Shown piece by piece: positions 29,662-38,279 of a stretch of 64,000 nt of DNA; the first letter of the stretch is position 1, and each line of letters begins with the position of its first letter. A program made the translations under genes and the position numbers. The DNA is taken from the NCBI GenBank assembly GCA_017477485.1, contig JAFUVR010000037.1, positions 6,949 to 70,948 of the forward strand. The letters are read 5' to 3'. Source of the stretch: Bacteroidales bacterium. Its GTDB lineage: Bacteria > Bacteroidota > Bacteroidia > Bacteroidales > P3. Under the pieces are notes generated by a model. It worked only from the letters and a program-made list of their open reading frames with translations, did not search any database and was not told the DNA's origin.

Positions 29662-30210
29662 GTGAAAAGCAATAACGCAATGAAACTCTACAAAAAGATC
29701 TACATCAAACTCCTCGTCTACCTCGGCAAAGCCGTGGACATCAGTTCCAGCGGCCACTACCCTGCCGACGTGCTGTCGAACATCAAGGGCAACAAATTCA
29801 CCATCGACGGCATTGAATGCGGCAGCATGGAAGGTTTTCTGCAAGCACTGAAACAAGACGATGCCGAGACCCAGCGCCACCTCTGTGCTCTCAAAGGACG
29901 CGAGGCACGCCGACGCGCCACCCGCGACTGGCAGCGCGACCAACGCCTCTGGTGGCAGGGACAGCCAATAGGCCGCGAGAGCGACGAATACCGTGCCCTC
30001 CTGTGCCGTGCCTACGACACACTCTTCGAGCAGAACGTAGCCTTCCGCATGGCACTCCTCTCCACCAAAGGCAAGCGGCTCTTCTACAGCCACGGACGCC
30101 ACAACCCCAAGAAAACCATCCTCACCGAACAAGAGTTTTGCCAGATACTGACCGACCTGCGTGCCAAGAACGCTGACCGCAAAACCTTCGGCACAGGCTC
30201 GCGCCACTGA
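29662..30210 (+). CDS. Hypothetical protein, possibly a divergent NADAR (YbiA/DUF1768-like) domain
   Basis: By-eye pattern match to the NADAR layout: LSNI..KFTIDGIECGSMEGFLQALKQDD...KGREARRR ... LFEQNVAFRMALLSTKGKRLFYSH ... EQEFCQILTDLR. The alternative start is ATG 29680. Its last 84 nt are duplicated at 31491-31577. Confidence 0.6.
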   Translation: MKSNNAMKLYKKIYIKLLVYLGKAVDISSSGHYPADVLSNIKGNKFTIDGIECGSMEGFLQALKQDDAETQRHLCALKGREARRRATRDWQRDQRLWWQGQPIGRESDEYRALLCRAYDTLFEQNVAFRMALLSTKGKRLFYSHGRHNPKKTILTEQEFCQILTDLRAKNADRKTFGTGSRH

Positions 30211-30213
30211 GGC
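30127..30213 (+). repeat. Direct repeat copy A (functional 3' end of the NADAR-like gene)
   Basis: 29-nt perfect core GAACAAGAGTTTTGCCAGATACTGACCGA and the shared end GCGCGCCACTGAGGC (copy A reads TCGCGCCACTGAGGC). 69/87 identical to 31491-31577 by hand alignment. Confidence 0.85.
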
Positions 30214-30368
30214 CTTTTTACCCAAGATACCCCTAACACGAAGTTGTGCCCCCTCCCCTCGTCCACATGATGAGAGGGAGGGGCTTGGCATTTGGGGCTA
30301 AAAACTGCATTCTATCTTACACAGCACCACCTTAATTCCCCTACCCTACCACCATAAAAGATTTTTTG

Positions 30369-30376
30369 TATCTTTG
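30369..30376 (+). promoter_or_regulatory. -7 promoter box TATCTTTG inside the insertion
   Basis: 121 nt upstream of ATG 30497. Confidence 0.4.
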
Positions 30377-30496
30377 CAACGATAAACAAACAAAACGCCG
30401 CCCCTATAACAGCAGAGAATTGCATCACACAAAAAAACTAATTCCACATCATAAAACAAGTCAATCAGCCCATAGCGCGAGCGATTATAGTCGGAA

Positions 30497-30715
30497 ATGG
30501 ATAAGAAAACATTGGAATTTGTAACCTACTGCATCGTTAAACTATCAGCGATGCTGAATTTGCCACAACGAGAAGTCTATAAGCGGCTTAAAGACTCGGG
30601 GATATTGTATGGCTATATCATTCCATCGTATGATGTGTTACATACGTTCAGTTCGAGGTACCTAATGGAAGACCTCACCGATTATATGAGAGAGAAAGGA
30701 GTGCTCTCGTCATGA
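30497..30715 (+). CDS. DUF3791 domain protein (copy 1)
   Basis: 72 aa, LEFVTYCIVKLSAMLNLPQREVYKRLKDSGILYGYIIPSYDVLHTFSSRYLMEDL, the typical DUF3791 pattern (from memory). 4-nt overlap with the next gene. Confidence 0.7.
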   Translation: MDKKTLEFVTYCIVKLSAMLNLPQREVYKRLKDSGILYGYIIPSYDVLHTFSSRYLMEDLTDYMREKGVLSS

Positions 30716-31182
30716 GGCTATATCATTCATCAAATATTATCGTTGAATGCCCTGACACGAAGCATTCGCGCCACTACCTTGATTTTGGTCGTGGTTTCTA
30801 CCTTACCTCGTTGCATGAACAGGCGGAGCGGTATGGGCAACGATTCAAGCGCAGAGGGCAACAGGCTTGGCTGAATACGTATGAGTTTGCTTGTGATGAC
30901 ACTCTTTGGAACATTAAACGTTTTGACAGTTATGACAAGCAATGGCTCGACTTTGTGGCACAATGTCGTGACGGAAAGGATGTAGGCGATTATGATCTGG
31001 TAATTGGCGGTATTGCCAACGACAGAGTAATTATCACGTTGGACCGGTATTTCACAAGAGAAATCACGCAGGAAGATGCCCTTGGAATGCTGCGATTTGA
31101 GAAACCGAACATTCAATACTGTATTCGGTCAGAAAGTATGTTGCGGGAATGTCTCACTTATATCGACAGTGAACAATTATGA
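30712..31182 (+). CDS. DUF3990 domain protein (ADP-ribosyltransferase-fold superfamily, candidate toxin)
   Basis: MRLYHSSNIIVECPD...LDFGRGFYLTSLHEQAERYG... matches the DUF3990 N-terminal signature (LYHGS...FG.GFYlT). Its membership of the Pfam ADP-ribosyl clan is from memory. Confidence 0.7.
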   Translation: MRLYHSSNIIVECPDTKHSRHYLDFGRGFYLTSLHEQAERYGQRFKRRGQQAWLNTYEFACDDTLWNIKRFDSYDKQWLDFVAQCRDGKDVGDYDLVIGGIANDRVIITLDRYFTREITQEDALGMLRFEKPNIQYCIRSESMLRECLTYIDSEQL

Positions 31183-31418
31183 GCGAAGAAGGCAGACAGG
31201 CTATGAGAAGCGCACAATGTGCACGAATCATTATGTGTATCAGCGAGATGTTTGGCGTCTCGCTCAATGACGCAACAGACATCTATTACAATTCCGACAC
31301 GGCCAATATGATAGAAGACGGCGTTGCCGACCTCCATTGTCGTAGTGACAAATATCTGGCAGAGGAAGTATGGAGAGAATATAAAGAATCCATCCCCACA
31401 GGTAAGGCATGTCATTAG
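31179..31418 (+). CDS. DUF3791 domain protein (copy 2)
   Basis: 79 aa, ARIIMCISEMFGVSLNDATDIYYNSDTANMIEDGVADLHCRSDKYLAEEV. 4-nt overlap with the DUF3990 gene. Confidence 0.65.
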   Translation: MSEEGRQAMRSAQCARIIMCISEMFGVSLNDATDIYYNSDTANMIEDGVADLHCRSDKYLAEEVWREYKESIPTGKACH

Positions 31419-31490
31419 TCGGCATAGGACCACCAACGTGTGAGCCATTTTTTTGGAGCAAACTCTAAAACCAAAGAGACAGAAGCGAGC

Positions 31491-31577
31491 GAACAAGAGT
31501 TTTGCCAGATACTGACCGAGTAGCGTGAGAGATATGCCGACCGCAAAATCATGGTCAATGGGGCGCGCCACTGAGGC
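31491..31577 (+). repeat. Direct repeat copy B (decayed, displaced 3' end; in-frame TAG)
   Basis: Reads ..EQEFCQILTE*RERYADRKIMVNGARH* in the frame homologous to copy A, and is followed by the hairpin 31596-31635. Confidence 0.85.
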
Positions 31578-31595
31578 AAGCATCCGTACTATTAC

Positions 31596-31635
31596 ACAAC
31601 GAGGGAGACCCAATCAGTTAGGTCTCCTTCGTTGT
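31596..31635. terminator. 15-bp hairpin between convergent units (island/old gene end vs tatC)
   Basis: ACAACGAGGGAGACC-caatcagtta-GGTCTCCTTCGTTGT (one G.U). There is no clean U-run on either strand. Confidence 0.45.
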
Positions 31636-31681
31636 TTGGTCAAAGATCCTTCACATTGACTCAGCATGGAGGGTAGTGCCG

Positions 31682-32452
31682 CTAATCGGTCTTGGCCGTC
31701 CACCGGACGACGCGGATGCTGACTTCATAAAGAAGATAGAGTGGCATCGAGACGAGTATGAGTGTCATCAGGTCGGGAGGGGTGATGACAGCTGCCACAA
31801 ACATGATGACGATAAAGGCGTGGCGACGGTAGCGTGATAGTAGCGCGGACGTAATCAATCCCATCTTTGCCAGAAAGAAAGCAATGATGGGCAGCTGGAA
31901 CACGAGGCCCATCACCAGCGTCAGCGATGTGAACGTGCGAATGTACGAATCAATTGTAATCGTACTATGTATTTGGTCGGAAACACTGTAGTTGCCCAAA
32001 AAGCGAAACGAGATGGGAAACAAAACAAAATAGGTCATCAGCACGCCCACGATGAAGAGTGCGTAGATAACAACGGCCACCGCCACGGAGTGGCGCCGCT
32101 CGTTATCGTACAAGGCTGGAGACACGAAGCGAAACAATTCAAAAAGGATGTAGGGCGATGCACCGAGCAGCCCAAGATGAAAAGCCGTGGTGATGTGACG
32201 CATAAACTGGCTCGACAGGTCGGTAGCGATGAGCTGTATGTGGTACTCGGCGAAATGGAAATCCACGCCCAGACCTTGCAGCAAGTGCTCTATCCAACGG
32301 TAGGTAACGAAATCCCACTGTGAGGGTGCCAACAGTAGACGCCACGTGGCATCCTTGAAGCAAAACACCACGACGGTTATAGCAAGCGTGACTGCGAGAA
32401 TGCGCAACAGCATTTGGCGAAGCACCTCCAAGTGTTCGCCAAATGTCATCAT
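31682..32452 (-). CDS. tatC: Twin-arginine translocase subunit TatC
   Basis: MMTFGEHLEVLRQMLLRILAVTLAI.. with six TM segments. Start set at ATG 32452, 16 nt after the tatA stop; the longer ORF overlaps tatA. Confidence 0.85.
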   Translation of the reverse strand: MMTFGEHLEVLRQMLLRILAVTLAITVVVFCFKDATWRLLLAPSQWDFVTYRWIEHLLQGLGVDFHFAEYHIQLIATDLSSQFMRHITTAFHLGLLGASPYILFELFRFVSPALYDNERRHSVAVAVVIYALFIVGVLMTYFVLFPISFRFLGNYSVSDQIHSTITIDSYIRTFTSLTLVMGLVFQLPIIAFFLAKMGLITSALLSRYRRHAFIVIMFVAAVITPPDLMTLILVSMPLYLLYEVSIRVVRWTAKTD

Positions 32453-32468
32453 CTGCTCCGTGGGCTGG

Positions 32469-32702
32469 CTATTGCCGCTCCCCGTCCTCGCCCGATGGCG
32501 GCTGTTGCGCAGGTGGTACTTCCTTTTCATCTTGCTGGTCGCCTGAATCTTCGGCCATGGGGTCGCTCATGCCTTTCTTGAAACTCTGCACGCCCTGTCC
32601 CAAACCTTTCATCATCTCGGGCAGTTTCTTGCCACCGAACAGTAGCAGGGCTATGCCGCTGATGAGCAGCAACTCGGTAGTACCGATAAATAGTAGTTTC
32701 AT
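32469..32702 (-). CDS. tatA: Twin-arginine translocase subunit TatA/E
   Basis: [45 protein letters not shown]: TM helix, hinge FGG and amphipathic helix. Confidence 0.85.
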
Positions 32703-32713
32703 AGCGGTTTATG

Positions 32714-33037
32714 TTATTCAGAAAGGAATATCTCGCAAGTCTCGAAGTTTATCTCCCAGTGGCCGTTCTCGGTACCTTGCCATTGATACTGGGCAGCCAT
32801 GCGGTCCCACCAGTTTTGAAATTTAGTGCCTGTCTCGCCCATATCCTTCACCAGTTTCTGATAGAGGACGTCGTTATCGGGAGTGAGAATTTTGGCCAAC
32901 TCGCTGAGGCCGTTGCGGCGTTCGAAGAGACTCTGTATCTCGTCGCGTTCCTCGGCAGTTACATATCCGATTTTTGTCTTCATGGTTCGTGTTTTTTCAA
33001 TGATATTTTGTTTGACATCTGTTATGAAATCAACCAT
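32714..33037 (-). CDS. Small accessory protein of the CXXX-repeat peptide modification system
   Basis: 107-aa ORF (internal start MKTKIGYVTAEERDEIQ at 32983 is equally possible). Predicted helical. It sits 11 nt upstream of tatA and 51 nt downstream of the SPASM gene. The family name is from memory of NCBI/TIGRFAM naming. Confidence 0.6.
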   Translation of the reverse strand: MVDFITDVKQNIIEKTRTMKTKIGYVTAEERDEIQSLFERRNGLSELAKILTPDNDVLYQKLVKDMGETGTKFQNWWDRMAAQYQWQGTENGHWEINFETCEIFLSE

Positions 33038-33088
33038 GCTTGATTGACAACCTAACCCTGGTCAATTGTTTTCTTGGTCAGGCGAAAG

Positions 33089-34036
33089 TTACCATTCTTT
33101 ACGCACGTCGAAGGGGTCGCTGTAGTCTATTTCCTTTATCTCCACTTCGGACATGAAGGTTGCCTTCTCCCTTACGTTCGCCAGCAACCGTCGCGTGGTT
33201 TCGCGCTCGGTGTGTGCCATGACACATTGCTCATGGCTTGGTGTATTCACCTCGTAAGTCATCTTGCGGTTCAGCCACACGCAGCGACGGCAATGCCACA
33301 CATCGCAGTGGCGGCACAGCGGGGCATGGTCCAGCCGCAACAACTGAGGGTTGCGGATGTCAAGTCCCTCCGCCACGGATCCCACGTTATCATCGGCATC
33401 AGTGTAGTAGAACGCCGGACAGAGGTAGAACCGCCCATTAGGTGCCAATGTGATGTTCTCTACGCCAGCGTTGCAGTGGTTAGGTTTATCCAGCATCATG
33501 CGGTCGGTTAGCAGGTTCAACTGCGGTGCGCACCCTGTAAGATACTCCGCCTTCACGACCTCCGCCAGCGTGTCCAGCACCTCTCTGTACTTCGGCAGCT
33601 CGGCATCCGTAATAGTCTCCACGTCGGTAATCACCACGTTGAGCCGTGCCACCTGCTGCGTCAACTGAGCCACAGCATCGACCGACTTGAAGAGCCCCGC
33701 CTTCGTTATCCGCAGCACGTACGGCACATTTCGGAGAACGGGCGACTCGCCCGAGAGTCCGTCCATGACCACCACATCGGGTTCCTGCACAGGTCTGTCG
33801 CCCGTGCCCCACGGCACAATGTCGTGGTGGTCAATGGTGTCTATTACGTCCAGATACTCCTGCGGCAGTGCGTAGTTGGGATAGACCATCTGCACCATCA
33901 AGTTCTCCATCATGGCATAGCGAATGCTCATGCGCAAGTCGTCGAGACCTATCAGTCGGCGTTCCTTGTGGGGATTGTCGCAATGGCAGTAGCTCACCGA
34001 TGTGTCGTCCAACAGTATTACAAGATATTGCATCAT
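33089..34036 (-). CDS. SPASM-domain protein lacking the canonical radical SAM CxxxCxxC motif (CXXX-repeat peptide maturase-like)
   Basis: Start chosen at MMQYLVILLDDTSVSYCHC (34036, 4 nt after the upstream stop); alternative ATG at 34081. The N-terminus has only CHC. The C-terminal Cys cluster is HCNAG..LCPAF..LCRHCDVWHCRRCVW..EQC. Confidence 0.7.
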   Translation of the reverse strand: MMQYLVILLDDTSVSYCHCDNPHKERRLIGLDDLRMSIRYAMMENLMVQMVYPNYALPQEYLDVIDTIDHHDIVPWGTGDRPVQEPDVVVMDGLSGESPVLRNVPYVLRITKAGLFKSVDAVAQLTQQVARLNVVITDVETITDAELPKYREVLDTLAEVVKAEYLTGCAPQLNLLTDRMMLDKPNHCNAGVENITLAPNGRFYLCPAFYYTDADDNVGSVAEGLDIRNPQLLRLDHAPLCRHCDVWHCRRCVWLNRKMTYEVNTPSHEQCVMAHTERETTRRLLANVREKATFMSEVEIKEIDYSDPFDVRKEW

Positions 34037-34040
34037 GACT

Positions 34041-35288
34041 TTAGCAGATTTCGGGGTTAGACTTACGGTGATTTTTCTCATACTCCTCACGGTGCTCCTC
34101 CAGTTCCAACTTACGGTAGAGCTTGTTCCAGTAGTAGTTGTTGGCCCGCACACGGGCTTTGTGCATCAGGCAAATGGCTGTCGAACGTTCATAGATAGTG
34201 TTGGTCCGTGCGGCATCGTAGTTCTCGCCCTGACACCATGCACAGCCACTCGCCACCTCGCAATCGAGGCACTTTTGTGGGCTCTGCGTCACACGATCCA
34301 GCGTCAGGAACGGCCGCAACAGGTTCTGGTTGATACCATCCTTGATGTTGCCGATAACGAGTGCTCTCTTCTCTCGCAGCGAATACTGCGCAAAGCGTGT
34401 GCAGGGGTACAATTTGCCCGCGGCGTCCACGCTCAGCATCCGTCCCGCGCCGCACCAGTTCTGGTTATCGCGCTCTGGATCCAGCGGTTTGCCTATCTGC
34501 TCGCTGAAGAACGAGCAGGCATAGTCCTCATAATAGCCACCGTCAATGATGGCATCGGCCAGTGTCATCAGCTGTTCCTCGAAGCGACTATCATCGCCCT
34601 CCTGCCACACATCCTCGAACACCACGTTGATGTTCACCTGATGGATGCCCAGCGAATAGAGGTGTAGCACACTTTCCGTGATATACGGAATGTCGGTACT
34701 GCTGATGGTTACCTTCGTCCCCGCATCAGGAAACTGCTTTAGCCACAGCGGGATGTTACGCACCACGTCGTTGTACGACCCTTTGTCCGACGACAGCGTG
34801 ATGCCGTTGGGGTCAGTGGATGGCTGCTTGTACACACGGTTCATATCGTGCTTCCGCTCCGTGCCGTCGATGGTGATACCTATCGACAGGTGGTCGCGGT
34901 TCTTCTCGATAAAACGCTGCACCTCGGGCGTGTGATAGTTGATGCCGTTGGTCGAGAACGAGAAACGGTACGAGTTGAACCAGTGATGGTTCAGTTCGAA
35001 CATACGCAACTTCAGGTAGTCGCATATGCGGTCAATCAGTGCAATCTCCAGAAATGGCTCACCGCCGATGAAGTCCCAAATCACACTTTCTTCCGGAAAT
35101 TCGCTCTCATGCGATAAAACATAGTCAATAAACTCCTTGGCCGTTTCCCACGACATCCGCTCTTTCATGTTCTTCCCCACCAAGTAGCAATACTTACAGG
35201 CCAGCTGACAGTCCTTCGTGACGATAAATGTAATATTCTTCGCCATGCCAGACTGCCATAGCAATGTTTCTTTTTTTATAGTATTCAT
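34041..35288 (-). CDS. Radical SAM/SPASM peptide maturase (anaerobic sulfatase-maturase-like), CXXX-repeat target type
   Basis: Radical SAM cluster motif ITFIVTKDCQLACKYCY. SPASM cysteines are WCGAG..YPCTRF..CLDCEVASGCAWCQG..AIC. Confidence 0.85.
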   Translation of the reverse strand: MNTIKKETLLWQSGMAKNITFIVTKDCQLACKYCYLVGKNMKERMSWETAKEFIDYVLSHESEFPEESVIWDFIGGEPFLEIALIDRICDYLKLRMFELNHHWFNSYRFSFSTNGINYHTPEVQRFIEKNRDHLSIGITIDGTERKHDMNRVYKQPSTDPNGITLSSDKGSYNDVVRNIPLWLKQFPDAGTKVTISSTDIPYITESVLHLYSLGIHQVNINVVFEDVWQEGDDSRFEEQLMTLADAIIDGGYYEDYACSFFSEQIGKPLDPERDNQNWCGAGRMLSVDAAGKLYPCTRFAQYSLREKRALVIGNIKDGINQNLLRPFLTLDRVTQSPQKCLDCEVASGCAWCQGENYDAARTNTIYERSTAICLMHKARVRANNYYWNKLYRKLELEEHREEYEKNHRKSNPEIC

Positions 35289-35351
35289 TTCTTTATAGGC
35301 AAAACACCACCAAAATATAAAATGTGTCGATTTTTACCATATATCCTTTGA

Positions 35352-36074
35352 CTAATTAATTTTTATTACCTGACTTGCTGGTGGGAAAACAAAAGACATC
35401 CCATAACAACTCCCTGTACAAAAACCAGCACAATTCCCGATACAGGAACTTGTACACAACGTTTTGCAACTATATTCACATGATTCCTTACAACTATGTT
35501 TACATGATTCCTTACAGGAATAATAGCATGACTCCTTACAGGTCTCAGAACAGGAACCACTACATCCTGATTTACAATCATGAGAACATGACTGCGCGCA
35601 ATTTGTAGTACATGTCCCACTGCACGTACTTTTACACCCACCAGAACAAGACGATTTACATCCAGCCTTACAGCTATCTTTGCACCCACCAGAGCAATCG
35701 CGACAACTTGAAGAAGTACTATGACTATTAGAGCTAGAACTATTGGAAGACGACCCCGCACAACTATAGCCACATGAGCCACTACATTGGTAATAGCACG
35801 AGCCTTGACATGTCCCTGTGCATCCTTGACACAGATTTGAACAGGAACCGCTACAACTACTTTTACATCCACCATAACATAACTGATAACATGTTTCAGT
35901 ACATGCAGTAGCACATGAATACGGGCATCCTGTAGGATGCAATTTCCCATCTGCTGCCGATGACATATCTACAACTGCTACCATTCCCAAAAGAGGAAGT
36001 AACCCATTGGCTGCCACTTTAAAGAAGGTCCTTCTGCTTTGTAATTTGTCTTCTTTTTTCATATCGTTTTTCAT
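35352..36074 (-). CDS. Tat-signal CXXX-repeat polycysteine protein (putative radical SAM substrate)
   Basis: Start at ATG 36074 (MKNDMKKEDKLQ) or 36062. Twin-arginine motif SRRTFFK plus an h-region and SSA-A. It has 41 Cys in two blocks (15 + 26), with 37 CX3C and 2 CX2C spacings, separated by the Ser/Asn linker AGSSSNSSSSNSHSTSSS. Confidence 0.8.
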   Translation of the reverse strand: MKNDMKKEDKLQSRRTFFKVAANGLLPLLGMVAVVDMSSAADGKLHPTGCPYSCATACTETCYQLCYGGCKSSCSGSCSNLCQGCTGTCQGSCYYQCSGSCGYSCAGSSSNSSSSNSHSTSSSCRDCSGGCKDSCKAGCKSSCSGGCKSTCSGTCTTNCAQSCSHDCKSGCSGSCSETCKESCYYSCKESCKHSCKESCEYSCKTLCTSSCIGNCAGFCTGSCYGMSFVFPPASQVIKIN

Positions 36075-36087
36075 AACTACAGGGTAT

Positions 36088-36334
36088 AAAAAAACCGCGG
36101 GCTTCTGTTGAGGCTCGTGGTTCTGGACTACCATCTATCAAACAAGAAAGCTCGCGATTGCTCACGAGCGTTCCGCTTCTTGTTGATAGATAAACAAATT
36201 TGTCCAGAATTTGAGCCTATCAAGAAAGCAAAAACGCTTTTTATCTATTTCCCTTCGATTCTAAATCTTCTCTATATTATTCGTATTCAGTTATTTTTTA
36301 TATACTACATTCACGGATTTGCACCACAAATATA
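36088..36334 (-). promoter_or_regulatory. Promoter (-7 box TATATTTG 36327-36334, -33 TTTG 36354-36357) plus ~245-nt structured leader, copy 1
   Basis: Nested helices at 36121-28/36202-09, 36135-48/36177-89 and 36150-69. Hairpin plus U7 at 36088-36120. The core is repeated at 63600-63730 (see findings). Confidence 0.6.
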
Positions 36335-36755
36335 CAAAAATTTTGTTTTGATACAAAGACCGTTAAATTAACACTTGTTTTTTTCAAGAAACATCCCTCG
36401 TCCGCCGTTATCGGGGCCTCCCCTGCGGCTTAGACCTTCTTTACGCATTTTCTTAATGTTTATCATCAGTCTTTATGGAAAAATGCAATGCCGCAGCGAT
36501 TTCAGCGTTGGATACTTCCGAATTGTTCGTAACCAGTCCCACATTTTTCACCCCACTTTTGGGGTAAATCATCTATTCTGCAAACATTATACGGAACGTT
36601 GAATCTGAGTAAATTGCCTCTACAGTCAAAACGTACCCTACCATACGGATGCAATGTGCGAAGCATTCCTAAATCCATCAGTTAAGGATAATAGCACAAC
36701 AGAAGGACAAAGGCGGAAAACGCAGATTAGAATTGCCGTTTTGGTGTGGAAATCG

Positions 36756-36763
36756 TATCTTTG
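36756..36763 (+). promoter_or_regulatory. -7 promoter box TATCTTTG
   Basis: 17 nt upstream of ATG 36780. Confidence 0.45.
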
Positions 36764-36779
36764 CGGCCTGTTTTCTGCG

Positions 36780-38279
36780 ATGCTGACAGTGACACACATA
36801 GTAGGTATCTTGCTGACCGTTGGGCTACTGCTGGTTATCGGCGTAATGTCGGGCCGGAAGGTGAAAGACGCGCGGGGTTTTGCCATAGGAGGCAAGGCTG
36901 GCAGCTGGATGGTGTGCGGCATCATTATGGGCACACTGGTAGGCGGACAATCGACCATAGGGACGTCGCAGATGGCCTACTGTTATGGCCTTTCGGCATG
37001 GCTCTTCTCGGCGGGAGTGGCTCTGGGCAGTCTGATACTGGGGTTGGTCTATACCGTGCCACTGCGGCGAAGCGGCTGTATGACCCTGGCAGAAATCATA
37101 GCCAAAGAATACGGCCACAAGGCCGAGACCATCGGGTCGTTGCTCTGCATGACCGGCATGTTTATCAGCATTGTGTCGCAAGTGATAGCCTCAACGGCAA
37201 TGATGACCTCGATGTTTGAGATGGAGCACACGGTGGCCGCGGTGTTGTCGGCGGCACTGATAGCTGCTTTCGTTTTCTTCGGCGGCATACGCAGTGCGGG
37301 GCTGGGAGGCATACTGAAGCTGGTGCTGCTCTACGTGGCATCGCTGACAGCGGCGGTGGTGGTGTGGCGGCTTTCGGGCAGCATAGGCAACGTTTACGAC
37401 AGCCTACACGAGGTCATGGAGACCCCCACCATTGCTGACCTCAATGGATTGTCCACATCGGAGTCCATAGACCATCGCTACGCCAACCCCGTAGGACGAG
37501 GTGTGGCGAAGGATATAGGGTCGGCCATCTCGCTGATTCTTGGCGTGCTGGCCACACAGACCTACGCCCAAGGCATTTGGGCCGCCCGCAGCGATCGCCA
37601 TGCGCGACGTGGCGCCGTGTGGTCGGCGCTGTTGGTGCCCGTCATAGGGGCGGCCTGCACACTGATTGGACTCTACATGCGTGGCCACTATATCACCCAC
37701 GAGGAACAGGCGGCACTGCTGGCCGCCGGCGAGCAAGTGCCCGAAGGAGTGAGGGTGATAGCCCACACTGCCGAGGTGTTTCCCCGATTCATCTTGGACA
37801 ACTGTCCAGCATGGATAGGGGGCATCGTGCTGGGCACCCTCTTCGTCACCATCCTCGGAGGCGGCAGCGGACTGACGCTGGGCACGGCGACAATACTGGT
37901 GCGCGACGTGTTCAGCAATATTCCTCGCCGCGACGGGGGACACTACGGTGAGTCGAAGAGCCTCTACCGTTTCAGCATCGTCTTCTTAGTCGGTATGGCG
38001 TTACTGGTGTCGCTGCTGAACAACCGAACACTCATCAACGAACTTGGCTTTCTCTCGCTGGGGCTACGTGCCACGGCGCTGCTGGTACCGTTGAGTGCGG
38101 CGCTCTTCATGCCCGGACGATTCAAACGCTACGAGGTCATCATGTCCATGGTCGTGGGCTGTGTCACCATGATTGCAGCCTCATCGCTCAGCCTACCGGG
38201 CGACGCCATCTTCTGGGGCATGGGCTCCGAACTGCTCATCATGGCAGCAGCCAGTGTCTACAGGAAGCACTCACACTGA
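36780..38279 (+). CDS. Sodium:solute symporter (SSS) family transporter
   Basis: Start at ATG 36780 (MLTVTHIVGILLTVGLLLVIG). About 13 TM segments, with GGKAGSWMVCGIIMGTLVGGQSTIGTSQ. Confidence 0.75.
   Translation: MLTVTHIVGILLTVGLLLVIGVMSGRKVKDARGFAIGGKAGSWMVCGIIMGTLVGGQSTIGTSQMAYCYGLSAWLFSAGVALGSLILGLVYTVPLRRSGCMTLAEIIAKEYGHKAETIGSLLCMTGMFISIVSQVIASTAMMTSMFEMEHTVAAVLSAALIAAFVFFGGIRSAGLGGILKLVLLYVASLTAAVVVWRLSGSIGNVYDSLHEVMETPTIADLNGLSTSESIDHRYANPVGRGVAKDIGSAISLILGVLATQTYAQGIWAARSDRHARRGAVWSALLVPVIGAACTLIGLYMRGHYITHEEQAALLAAGEQVPEGVRVIAHTAEVFPRFILDNCPAWIGGIVLGTLFVTILGGGSGLTLGTATILVRDVFSNIPRRDGGHYGESKSLYRFSIVFLVGMALLVSLLNNRTLINELGFLSLGLRATALLVPLSAALFMPGRFKRYEVIMSMVVGCVTMIAASSLSLPGDAIFWGMGSELLIMAAASVYRKHSH

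Follow-up and report, generated by a model that had tools for sequence, protein, structure and literature searches.

A CXXX repeat peptide modification system encoded together with tatA and tatC in Bacteroidales

Genes of the locus and their families

The DNA analyzed here is a 64,000-nucleotide stretch of Bacteroidales bacterium contig JAFUVR010000037.1 (the window), in which six open reading frames (ORFs) lie in a head-to-tail array on the minus strand between positions 31682 and 36074. Read from the upstream end, these encode a 240-aa polycysteine protein with a twin-arginine translocation (Tat) signal (35352-36074; the precursor), a 415-aa radical S-adenosylmethionine (SAM)/SPASM maturase (34041-35288), a 315-aa SPASM-only paralog of the maturase, referred to as the pseudo-radical-SAM/SPASM partner (33089-34036), an 89-aa small system protein (32714-32983), the 77-aa TatA (32469-32702), and TatC (31682-32452; 256 aa when counted from MMTFGEH). 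An earlier annotation made from the letters without database searches, here called the sequence-only reading, had described six such genes with gaps of 63, 4, 51, 11 and 16 nt. All of the ORFs were present, and the gaps were correct with the start codons used in that reading; the database starts widen the third gap to 105 nt and make tatC and tatA overlap. For the small protein, the start at 32983 was preferred by homologs and by NCBI over an alternative ATG at 33037 (107 aa), and the NCBI entry identical to the window TatC is a 282-aa form with its start at 32530.

Four of the six proteins scored above the curated cut-offs of hidden Markov models (HMMs) for a CXXX repeat system. The maturase matched TIGR04115 (radical SAM peptide maturase, CXXX-repeat target family) over the full profile, positions 1-359, with 618.7 bits against a cut-off of 350. 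The partner matched TIGR04119 (CXXX repeat peptide maturase) with 240 bits (cut-off 150), the small protein matched TIGR04116 (CXXX repeat peptide modification system protein) with 98 bits (cut-off 50), and the precursor matched TIGR04117 (Cys-Xaa-Xaa-Xaa repeat radical SAM target protein) with 52.5 bits (cut-off 50). Only the short repeat model TIGR04114 stayed under its cut-off (16.6 bits, cut-off 20). The Pfam search left the precursor unmatched, although its relatives have precomputed matches to PF27846 (tSAM_targ_Cxxx_rpt). Database families for CXXX-repeat maturases, which the sequence-only reading had mentioned without accessions, thus exist and cover this locus, and NCBI entries identical to the maturase, the small protein and TatC are already named in this way, from 'MAG: Bacteroidales bacterium' (MAG, metagenome-assembled genome). 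Membership in the CXXX repeat peptide modification system is virtually certain.

The maturase contains the motifs DCQLACKYCY and CLDCEVASGCAWC. Its radical-SAM CX3CX2C motif (C27/C31/C34) and the cysteines of its SPASM region (C279, C296, C340, C343, C349, C352 and C373) were invariant in 43 diverse homologs. The closest solved structure was CteB (5wgg, E = 6.6e-18). The radical-SAM motif of the maturase begins at residue 27 and the alignment begins only at CteB residue 94, indicating that the N-terminal recognition element (RRE) domain for RiPPs (peptides that are synthesized ribosomally and modified after translation) is absent from the maturase. Outside of its own family, the best HMM scores were for PapB (178.4 bits), CcpM (122 bits), SCIFF (93 bits) and QhpD (89.9 bits), and there was weak similarity to the anaerobic sulfatase maturase (anSME, 52.9 bits). 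A PADLOC search returned only a generic radical-SAM similarity of the maturase to pVip models (32 bits) and no match for the other five proteins; membership in an anti-phage defense system was rejected, as nothing specific was found there.

The partner is a distant paralog of maturase residues 117-351, with 22% identity, in which the CX3CX2C motif has been lost and the 7-Cys SPASM motif has been kept. The sequence-only reading had counted two radical-SAM/SPASM-type enzymes in the unit. This holds for the maturase, whereas the second protein has no radical-SAM cluster motif and is better described as a pseudo-radical-SAM protein, in line with the term SPASM-only that also appeared in that reading. 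In many other lineages the partner forms the C-terminal part of a fusion with the maturase, in proteins of 670-740 aa.

An AlphaFold2 model of the small protein, built from 56 aligned homologs, had a mean predicted local distance difference test (pLDDT) score of 91.7 and consisted of a strand, a long helical hairpin and a beta hairpin; a model made without an alignment (pLDDT 56) was discarded. Against the PDB, Foldseek found nothing below E = 0.9 and a sequence-profile search found nothing. Two candidate identities were considered and rejected. A PqqD-like RRE would have the three strands and three helices of a winged helix, whereas the model has one strand, two long helices and two strands, and no PDB match was found. 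A Tat chaperone of the TorD, DmsD or NapD type was rejected because there was neither a fold nor a sequence match, and because the small protein is also present in loci that do not have Tat genes.

The precursor begins with MKNDMKKEDKLQSRRTFFKVAANGLLPLLGMVAVVDMSSAADG. Its Tat signal, encoded at 35952-36074 (approximately residues 1-41), comprises the twin-arginine motif SRRTFFK that the sequence-only reading had pointed out, the h-region VAANGLLPLLGMVAVV, and a c-region with SSAA|DG at its end; it has no lipobox. There are 41 cysteines in the 240 residues, and 37 of the 40 spacings between successive cysteines are exactly four residues, a regularity that is impossible by chance. The repeats fall into two CXXX blocks, residues 50-105 and 124-223, joined by a Ser/Asn-rich linker. 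A 24-nt tandem repeat at 35467-35516 (2.1 copies, 92% match), within the second Cys block, encodes SCKESC(Y/K/E)(Y/H) units and suggests a recent repeat expansion of the precursor.

Related loci were collected by scanning one genome per species, which yielded 448 confirmed loci; the best 80 were kept, nearly all of them from Bacteroidales. The position of the precursor directly upstream of the maturase recurred in more than 80 related loci, and 95 of the 103 CXXX-rich ORFs in the genome loci started with a twin-arginine (RR) signal. The signal consensus was ELQSRREFFKKAAKxxLPIxGA, and the RR pair was invariant among 85 aligned signals. This conservation far exceeds that of the generic Tat motif, and could be due to co-evolution with the adjacent TatC or to a second role of the signal in recognition by the maturation proteins. 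The consensus-type signal was weakly similar to TIGR02811 ('formate dehydrogenase region TAT target'; 20.9 bits, cut-off 48). Within the CXXX unit, the most common residues in 95 precursors were Ser at X1 (24%), Gly at X2 (36%) and Ser at X3 (27%).

The related precursors were not uniform. Many loci encoded two to five precursor paralogs of 80-346 aa with 8-74 cysteines (for example L009, L011, L038 and L106; related loci are given here by L-numbers), some of them with the SPASM gene on one side and the small gene on the other, whereas the window has one long precursor. In 24 of the 95 related precursors, the first cysteine after the Tat signal was lipobox-like, as in LTSC or LSSC (L010, L011, L027, L030, L031, L036, L037, L041, L043, L044, L053, L059, L069, L070 and others). 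Acidic residues such as SKDDE, DKDDD or EIDEP often followed just after this cysteine, a stretch which we take to resemble the Bacteroidetes surface-lipoprotein export signal. Judging from these motifs, precursors of the lipobox type may be Tat-exported, surface-exposed lipoproteins.

The precursor gene is missing from the public annotation of the same contig, which exposes an annotation gap: at the corresponding place (approximately 6500-7220 of L092) three ORFs of 45, 39 and 77 aa are called on the opposite strand instead. The precursor sequence, searched with three possible starts, had no match in a collection of 15 billion proteins. Polycysteine precursors are probably under-annotated in general.

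Conservation of the Tat linkage and its ABC-exporter counterpart

By sequence, the TatA and TatC proteins of the window are canonical. TatA matched TIGR01411 with 59.8 bits (cut-off 53.9) as well as PF02416, and TatC matched TIGR00945 with 157.6 bits (cut-off 132.7) and PF00902 with 195 bits. The two genes belong to one gene string with the substrate gene, and no tatB is present in it.

Linkage was counted in the 69 species-level loci with at least 1.5 kb of DNA downstream of the core genes. The small gene was directly followed by tatA in 47 and by tatC in 45 of these loci, with 6-217 nt between the small gene and tatA across loci. The linkage was also recovered from the opposite direction: all four of the TatC homologs that were selected by TatC similarity alone (73-75% identity) follow a maturase, a SPASM partner, a small protein and tatA. 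In these four loci the reading frames overlap, and each locus has different neighbors. The adjacency spans Prevotellaceae, Muribaculaceae, Paludibacteraceae, Bacteroidaceae and other families with unrelated flanks. Xylanibacter rarus 109 (L012) and Prevotella merdae Marseille-P4119 (L032) are cultivable bacteria in which all six genes of the module occur. An arrangement confined to one genome, which the sequence-only reading had named as the outcome that would count against it, was therefore not what was found.

A screen for strict Tat motifs over 1.41 Mb of the loci and the window identified 90 precursors rich in cysteine; the one further ORF that it returned appeared to be spurious. Searching the loci with TatA and TatC of the window revealed no further copy of either gene elsewhere in them.

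Several individual loci deserve mention. Two (L039 and L086) have kept tatA after the small gene and have unrelated genes in the tatC position; their export modules seem to have decayed or been rearranged. Four contigs labeled as Clostridia, Clostridium sp. CAG:217, Pseudobutyrivibrio or Eubacteriales (L015, L058, L063 and L081) encode maturases 62-75% identical to that of the window and precursors of the Bacteroidales Tat type, one of them (L015) together with tatA-tatC, and are probably mis-binned Bacteroidales contigs. In an alphaproteobacterial (Rhodospirillales) MAG (L082), three short CXXX precursors bear RR-type signals, such as MDRRSVIKAGAKVIPALAMMGLALTA, indicating that Tat-type precursors are not confined to Bacteroidales; the gene order there is different, and no tat gene is seen within the short flank.

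A different export gene was found in the loci from outside of the Bacteroidales. These came from Halanaerobiales (L084), Clostridium argentinense CDC 2741 (L087), a delta-proteobacterium (L085) and metagenomes (L094, L101 and L103), and all six contained an ATP-binding cassette (ABC) exporter (ABC_membrane plus ABC_tran) and no tat genes. The small protein was visible in five of the six, with homologs of 28-46% identity in L084, L087, L094, L101 and L103. The maturase was a single fused protein in the two loci of this type whose ORFs were examined (L084 and L087). The precursors, where detected (L084, L087 and L101), were only 52-66 aa long and had no RR motif. One locus (L084) also encoded LytTR regulators. 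Conversely, the ABC exporter of these loci was found in no Bacteroidales locus. A metagenome scan seeded with the fused-type enzymes mostly returned Bacteroidales-type loci again, and other phyla are thinly sampled.

The maturation core is thus constant, and the export module is swapped between lineages, an ABC transporter in some and a Tat signal with tatAC in others. The product would accordingly leave the cell once matured, through the exporter that each lineage possesses. The swap is the strongest evidence both for export after maturation and for tatAC being a functional part of the unit.

Transcription signals and flanking genes

The six genes are probably transcribed together. As the sequence-only reading had stated, no hairpin with a U-run lies between them: a terminator scan found no terminator-like site in any intergenic gap, and the matches inside the unit were all within the tatC coding sequence. 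A hairpin at 31596-31635 (minus strand) downstream of tatC probably marks the end of the transcription unit. The sequence-only reading had placed a 15-bp hairpin there, and the hairpin was confirmed, with 17 pairs and one internal mismatch rather than 15 pairs. It has no U-run, and its predicted folding free energy is -26.2 kcal/mol (z = -4.6, with 0 of 200 shuffled sequences as stable).

The consensus of Bacteroidetes promoters is TTTG followed by TAnnTTTG. A candidate promoter of this type was read from the sequence at 36327-36357 on the minus strand, with TTTG at 36354-36357, a spacing of 19 nt, and the -7 box TAtaTTTG at 36327-36334, whose position 36334 is also the upper edge of the region delimited in the sequence-only reading. 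The candidate near 36330 agrees with this consensus, and a sigma-70 scan showed nothing convincing at 36327-36357.

The candidate promoter is separated from the start codon of the precursor by a 5' leader of approximately 250 nt. A long imperfect hairpin occupies 36121-36212 (minus strand), with a GC-rich inner stem at 36150-36169 followed by TTTCTTGTTT. The leader segment 36060-36322 folds with -69 kcal/mol (z = -4.8, 0 of 200 shuffles as stable), and the inner stem, 36169-36150, was flagged as terminator-like by the terminator scan. This hairpin might serve in attenuation, as an operator palindrome, or in RNA stability. An Rfam E-value search of 31000-37000, covering the leader and the gene gaps, gave chance-level matches only, with no riboswitch or other known RNA.

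Just past tatC, at 30497-31182 and 29662-30210 on the plus strand, are a DUF3791/DUF3990 gene pair and, next to it, a Phage_30_3-family ORF. The same DUF3791/DUF3990 pair occurs in a relative (L001, 4419-5110), there upstream of the precursors. The GC content is approximately 0.48 at 30001-32000 and 34001-36000, lower than the 0.54-0.61 seen in most of the window's first 30 kb; over the precursor, the drop is due to its Cys and Ser codon content.

Proposed pathway, alternatives and known systems

The reading preferred here, to which a probability of roughly 0.65 is assigned, is that the locus is a Bacteroidales form of the CXXX repeat peptide modification system which has been extended by its own Tat export module and which carries out thioether-type cross-linking. 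One transcript from the promoter near 36330 would probably give all six proteins. The 240-aa precursor would be held in the cytoplasm while the radical-SAM/SPASM enzyme modifies both CXXX arrays, assisted by the pseudo-radical-SAM/SPASM partner and the 89-aa helical-hairpin protein. The modification would most likely consist of many short-range thioether-type cross-links, as with PapB, CteB and QhpD. The cross-linked chain would then leave through the co-encoded minimal TatA-TatC translocase, with the twin-arginine signal in place of a RiPP leader, and signal peptidase I would free the polycysteine protein in its mature form into the periplasm. In the approximately one quarter of related precursors that have a lipobox, a lipoprotein would be formed instead. 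It is likely that the precursor is modified and then exported by Tat, and the chances of the chemistry being thioether formation are about even. The hedged proposal of the sequence-only reading, that the polycysteine protein is cross-linked, folded or loaded with metal or cofactor in the cytoplasm and leaves in that state, is supported by these comparisons.

The choice of Tat would follow from the modification, since a multiply cross-linked chain should be a poor substrate for the general secretory (Sec) pathway, and macrocyclized or bulky RiPPs have been stated to be poor SecY substrates (PMC11626156). PapB is reported to form Cys-Asp thioethers (PMC9413430), and it is active in vitro without a leader (PMC12715619). 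By analogy, such leader independence would fit both a precursor whose N-terminus is a signal peptide and a maturase without an RRE. Backbone links of the sactionine type, or links to neighboring small residues, would suit the precursors better than an Asp-like acceptor.

A number of observations weigh against this reading. The curated generic Tat-signal HMMs reported none of the signals even at E <= 10, probably because these models are short. The maturase scored below the PapB equivalog cut-off (NF047865; 178.4 versus 340 bits), and no X position of the CXXX unit was conserved (maximum 36%), which makes a side-chain-specific acceptor like the Asp of PapA unlikely. In 24 of the 69 loci there was no adjacent tatC and the RR precursors were mostly kept, so the translocase is not necessarily private to the CXXX substrate; Tat could come from another place in the genome, and could be the general translocase of the cell. 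Co-transcription of all six genes is judged probable only from the small distances between them and from the lack of terminator-like sites there, and the strong hairpin in the 5' leader has no explanation in the favored model. Finally, literature searches, with incomplete coverage, found no experimental description of any member of the CXXX system, just as the sequence-only reading had said that it knew of none.

Part of this evidence would also suit a metal- or iron-sulfur-binding array, in which the polycysteine protein is loaded with its cofactor in the cytoplasm, and hence exported by Tat, while the SPASM proteins insert the cluster or metal or make a metal-binding modification. Such an array would be in keeping with the cysteine density of 17-21% and the regular spacing, with the usual role of Tat as the route for cofactor-containing proteins, and with a partner that keeps only the Fe-S-binding SPASM part. 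There is also a precedent in the bufferins, which are Cys-modified, signal-peptide-bearing periplasmic RiPP metallophores (PMC11626156). However, the radical-SAM motif of the maturase is intact and its nearest characterized relatives form thioethers, and in Firmicutes the substrates of the same core are peptides of 52-66 aa, for which an ABC exporter is the way out, a route unsuited to an assembled metal cluster. A metal array in place of cross-linking is accordingly considered unlikely, though the two are compatible, in that the modified product could bind metal after export. A different chemistry on the cysteines or their neighbors is considered highly unlikely. This could be the formation of formylglycine or dehydroalanine, epimerization, or C- or S-methylation, with Tat then serving to avoid premature oxidation or to export a fast-folding product. 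The many reaction types reported among SPASM enzymes (PMC10114670), the weak anSME similarity (52.9 bits) and the lack of a conserved acceptor residue are consistent with it, but the similarity to thioether maturases is much stronger than that to anSME (178, 122 and 93 versus 53 bits), and a change that does not cross-link the chain would not by itself explain why Sec is avoided.

The linkage to tat might also be incidental, with tatA-tatC being the single housekeeping translocase of the genome and the precursor one of many Tat substrates. TatA and TatC are indeed canonical, RR precursors mostly persist in the 24 of 69 loci that have no adjacent tatC, and L039 and L086 have kept tatA after losing tatC. 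It is difficult to reconcile this idea with an adjacency that recurs across many families with unrelated flanks and with overlapping reading frames, with the lack of any other strong Tat-signal ORF in 1.41 Mb of surrounding DNA, or with the ABC exporter that takes the equivalent place in lineages without Tat signals, and it is regarded as quite unlikely.

The CXXX system is known from the databases, and within its Bacteroidales clade the locus is unexceptional. What appears to be new is the clade-wide coupling to Tat, substrates that are the size of proteins and in some cases putatively lipidated, and the exchange of Tat for an ABC exporter between lineages. The comparative result turns anonymous family names into a concrete pathway of cytoplasmic maturation followed by export, through Tat in Bacteroidales and through an ABC transporter in Firmicutes. 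The maturase family is abundant, with more than 8000 clusters at 90% identity scored, and is concentrated in dominant gut and rumen Bacteroidales. If the preferred reading is true, the use of general secretion signals by RiPPs, whether Sec or lipoprotein signals, would extend to Tat, the need of a cross-linking system for a folded-protein translocase would be explained, and these proteins would be a major Tat client in anaerobes whose other Tat substrates seem to be few. A broader proposal is more tentative and is held at somewhat less than even odds: that polycysteine proteins of protein size, cross-linked by a radical-SAM enzyme and with a twin-arginine signal replacing the RiPP leader, are widespread among Bacteroidales of the gut and rumen (Prevotella, Muribaculaceae, Paludibacteraceae and others), which export them already cross-linked through a dedicated, co-evolved TatAC. 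No RiPP-like pathway before it would have depended on Tat; it would have an ABC-dependent counterpart in Firmicutes, and some of its members would be lipoproteins of the surface or of outer-membrane vesicles, forming a thioether-laddered or thiol-rich envelope component that might act as a metal or redox buffer, a structural layer or a barrier.

Among known systems, the closest is the CXXX repeat peptide modification system itself (TIGR04114, TIGR04115, TIGR04116 and TIGR04119), all four components of which are found here in canonical order; its families were reportedly defined through comparative genomics by Haft and Basu in 2011. The family definitions name no export route, whereas here and in most Bacteroidales the target has a Tat signal and tatA-tatC are appended. 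The targets of the Tat type are also the size of proteins, with 240 aa and 41 cysteines in the window and up to 346 aa and 74 cysteines elsewhere, and the two maturase domains, which are fused in many other lineages, are split.

Export of a cross-linked polypeptide has a parallel in quinohemoprotein amine dehydrogenase. The cysteines of its gamma subunit, QhpC, are cross-linked in the cytoplasm by QhpD, a radical-SAM/SPASM enzyme, and the cross-linked product must then reach the periplasm, for which it has a dedicated ABC-type exporter. The system described here is similar in that respect, and differs in that no partner enzyme is present and Tat is used. The gene arrangement resembles phoD-tatAd-tatCd of Bacillus subtilis, where a two-component TatA-TatC translocase without TatB is encoded in an operon with its substrate gene. 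There the substrate is a folded phosphodiesterase, whereas here it is a repeat protein that is putatively modified by a radical-SAM enzyme.

The PapB/PapA system (freyrasin) and the CteB/SCIFF ranthipeptides likewise rely on radical-SAM/SPASM enzymes whose substrates contain repeated Cys motifs; among characterized families, PapB gave the window maturase its best score, and CteB is its closest solved structure. Compared with both, the substrate of the window is five times longer than typical RiPP precursors, there are two extra partner proteins, and export is by Tat. PapB has an RRE at residues 1-86 (PMC12715619), whereas the window maturase has no N-terminal RRE, and the fixed Asp acceptor of PapA, which gives Cys/Asp links, has no fixed counterpart in the CXXX precursors. 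The maturase is not a PapB equivalog, as the score, the RRE and the acceptor residue all differ.

Bufferins, which use Sec (PMC11626156), and the RiPP-lipoproteins of Chryseobacterium (PMC13056109) also use a secretion signal as leader, are modified on cysteines in the cytoplasm, and are processed by signal peptidase I or II. Their enzymes are oxidative ones that depend on multinuclear non-heme iron (MNIO enzymes) and their route is Sec or the lipoprotein pathway, whereas the window system combines a radical-SAM enzyme with a twin-arginine signal and a translocase encoded alongside; Tat is mentioned in neither paper. A RiPP-mining study of Bacteroidales (PMC10352776) mentions neither the CXXX system nor Tat, and no paper on Tat coupling of the CXXX system was found in the literature searched, the coverage of which was incomplete. 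The HXS system, a His-Xaa-Ser repeat protein with paired radical-SAM maturases, is matured in the cytoplasm and acts in the periplasm against phage (PMC13128918). The HXS and CXXX systems both consist of short-repeat proteins in systems that were defined from genomes; they differ in the repeat, in the enzymes, and in the anti-phage role of HXS.

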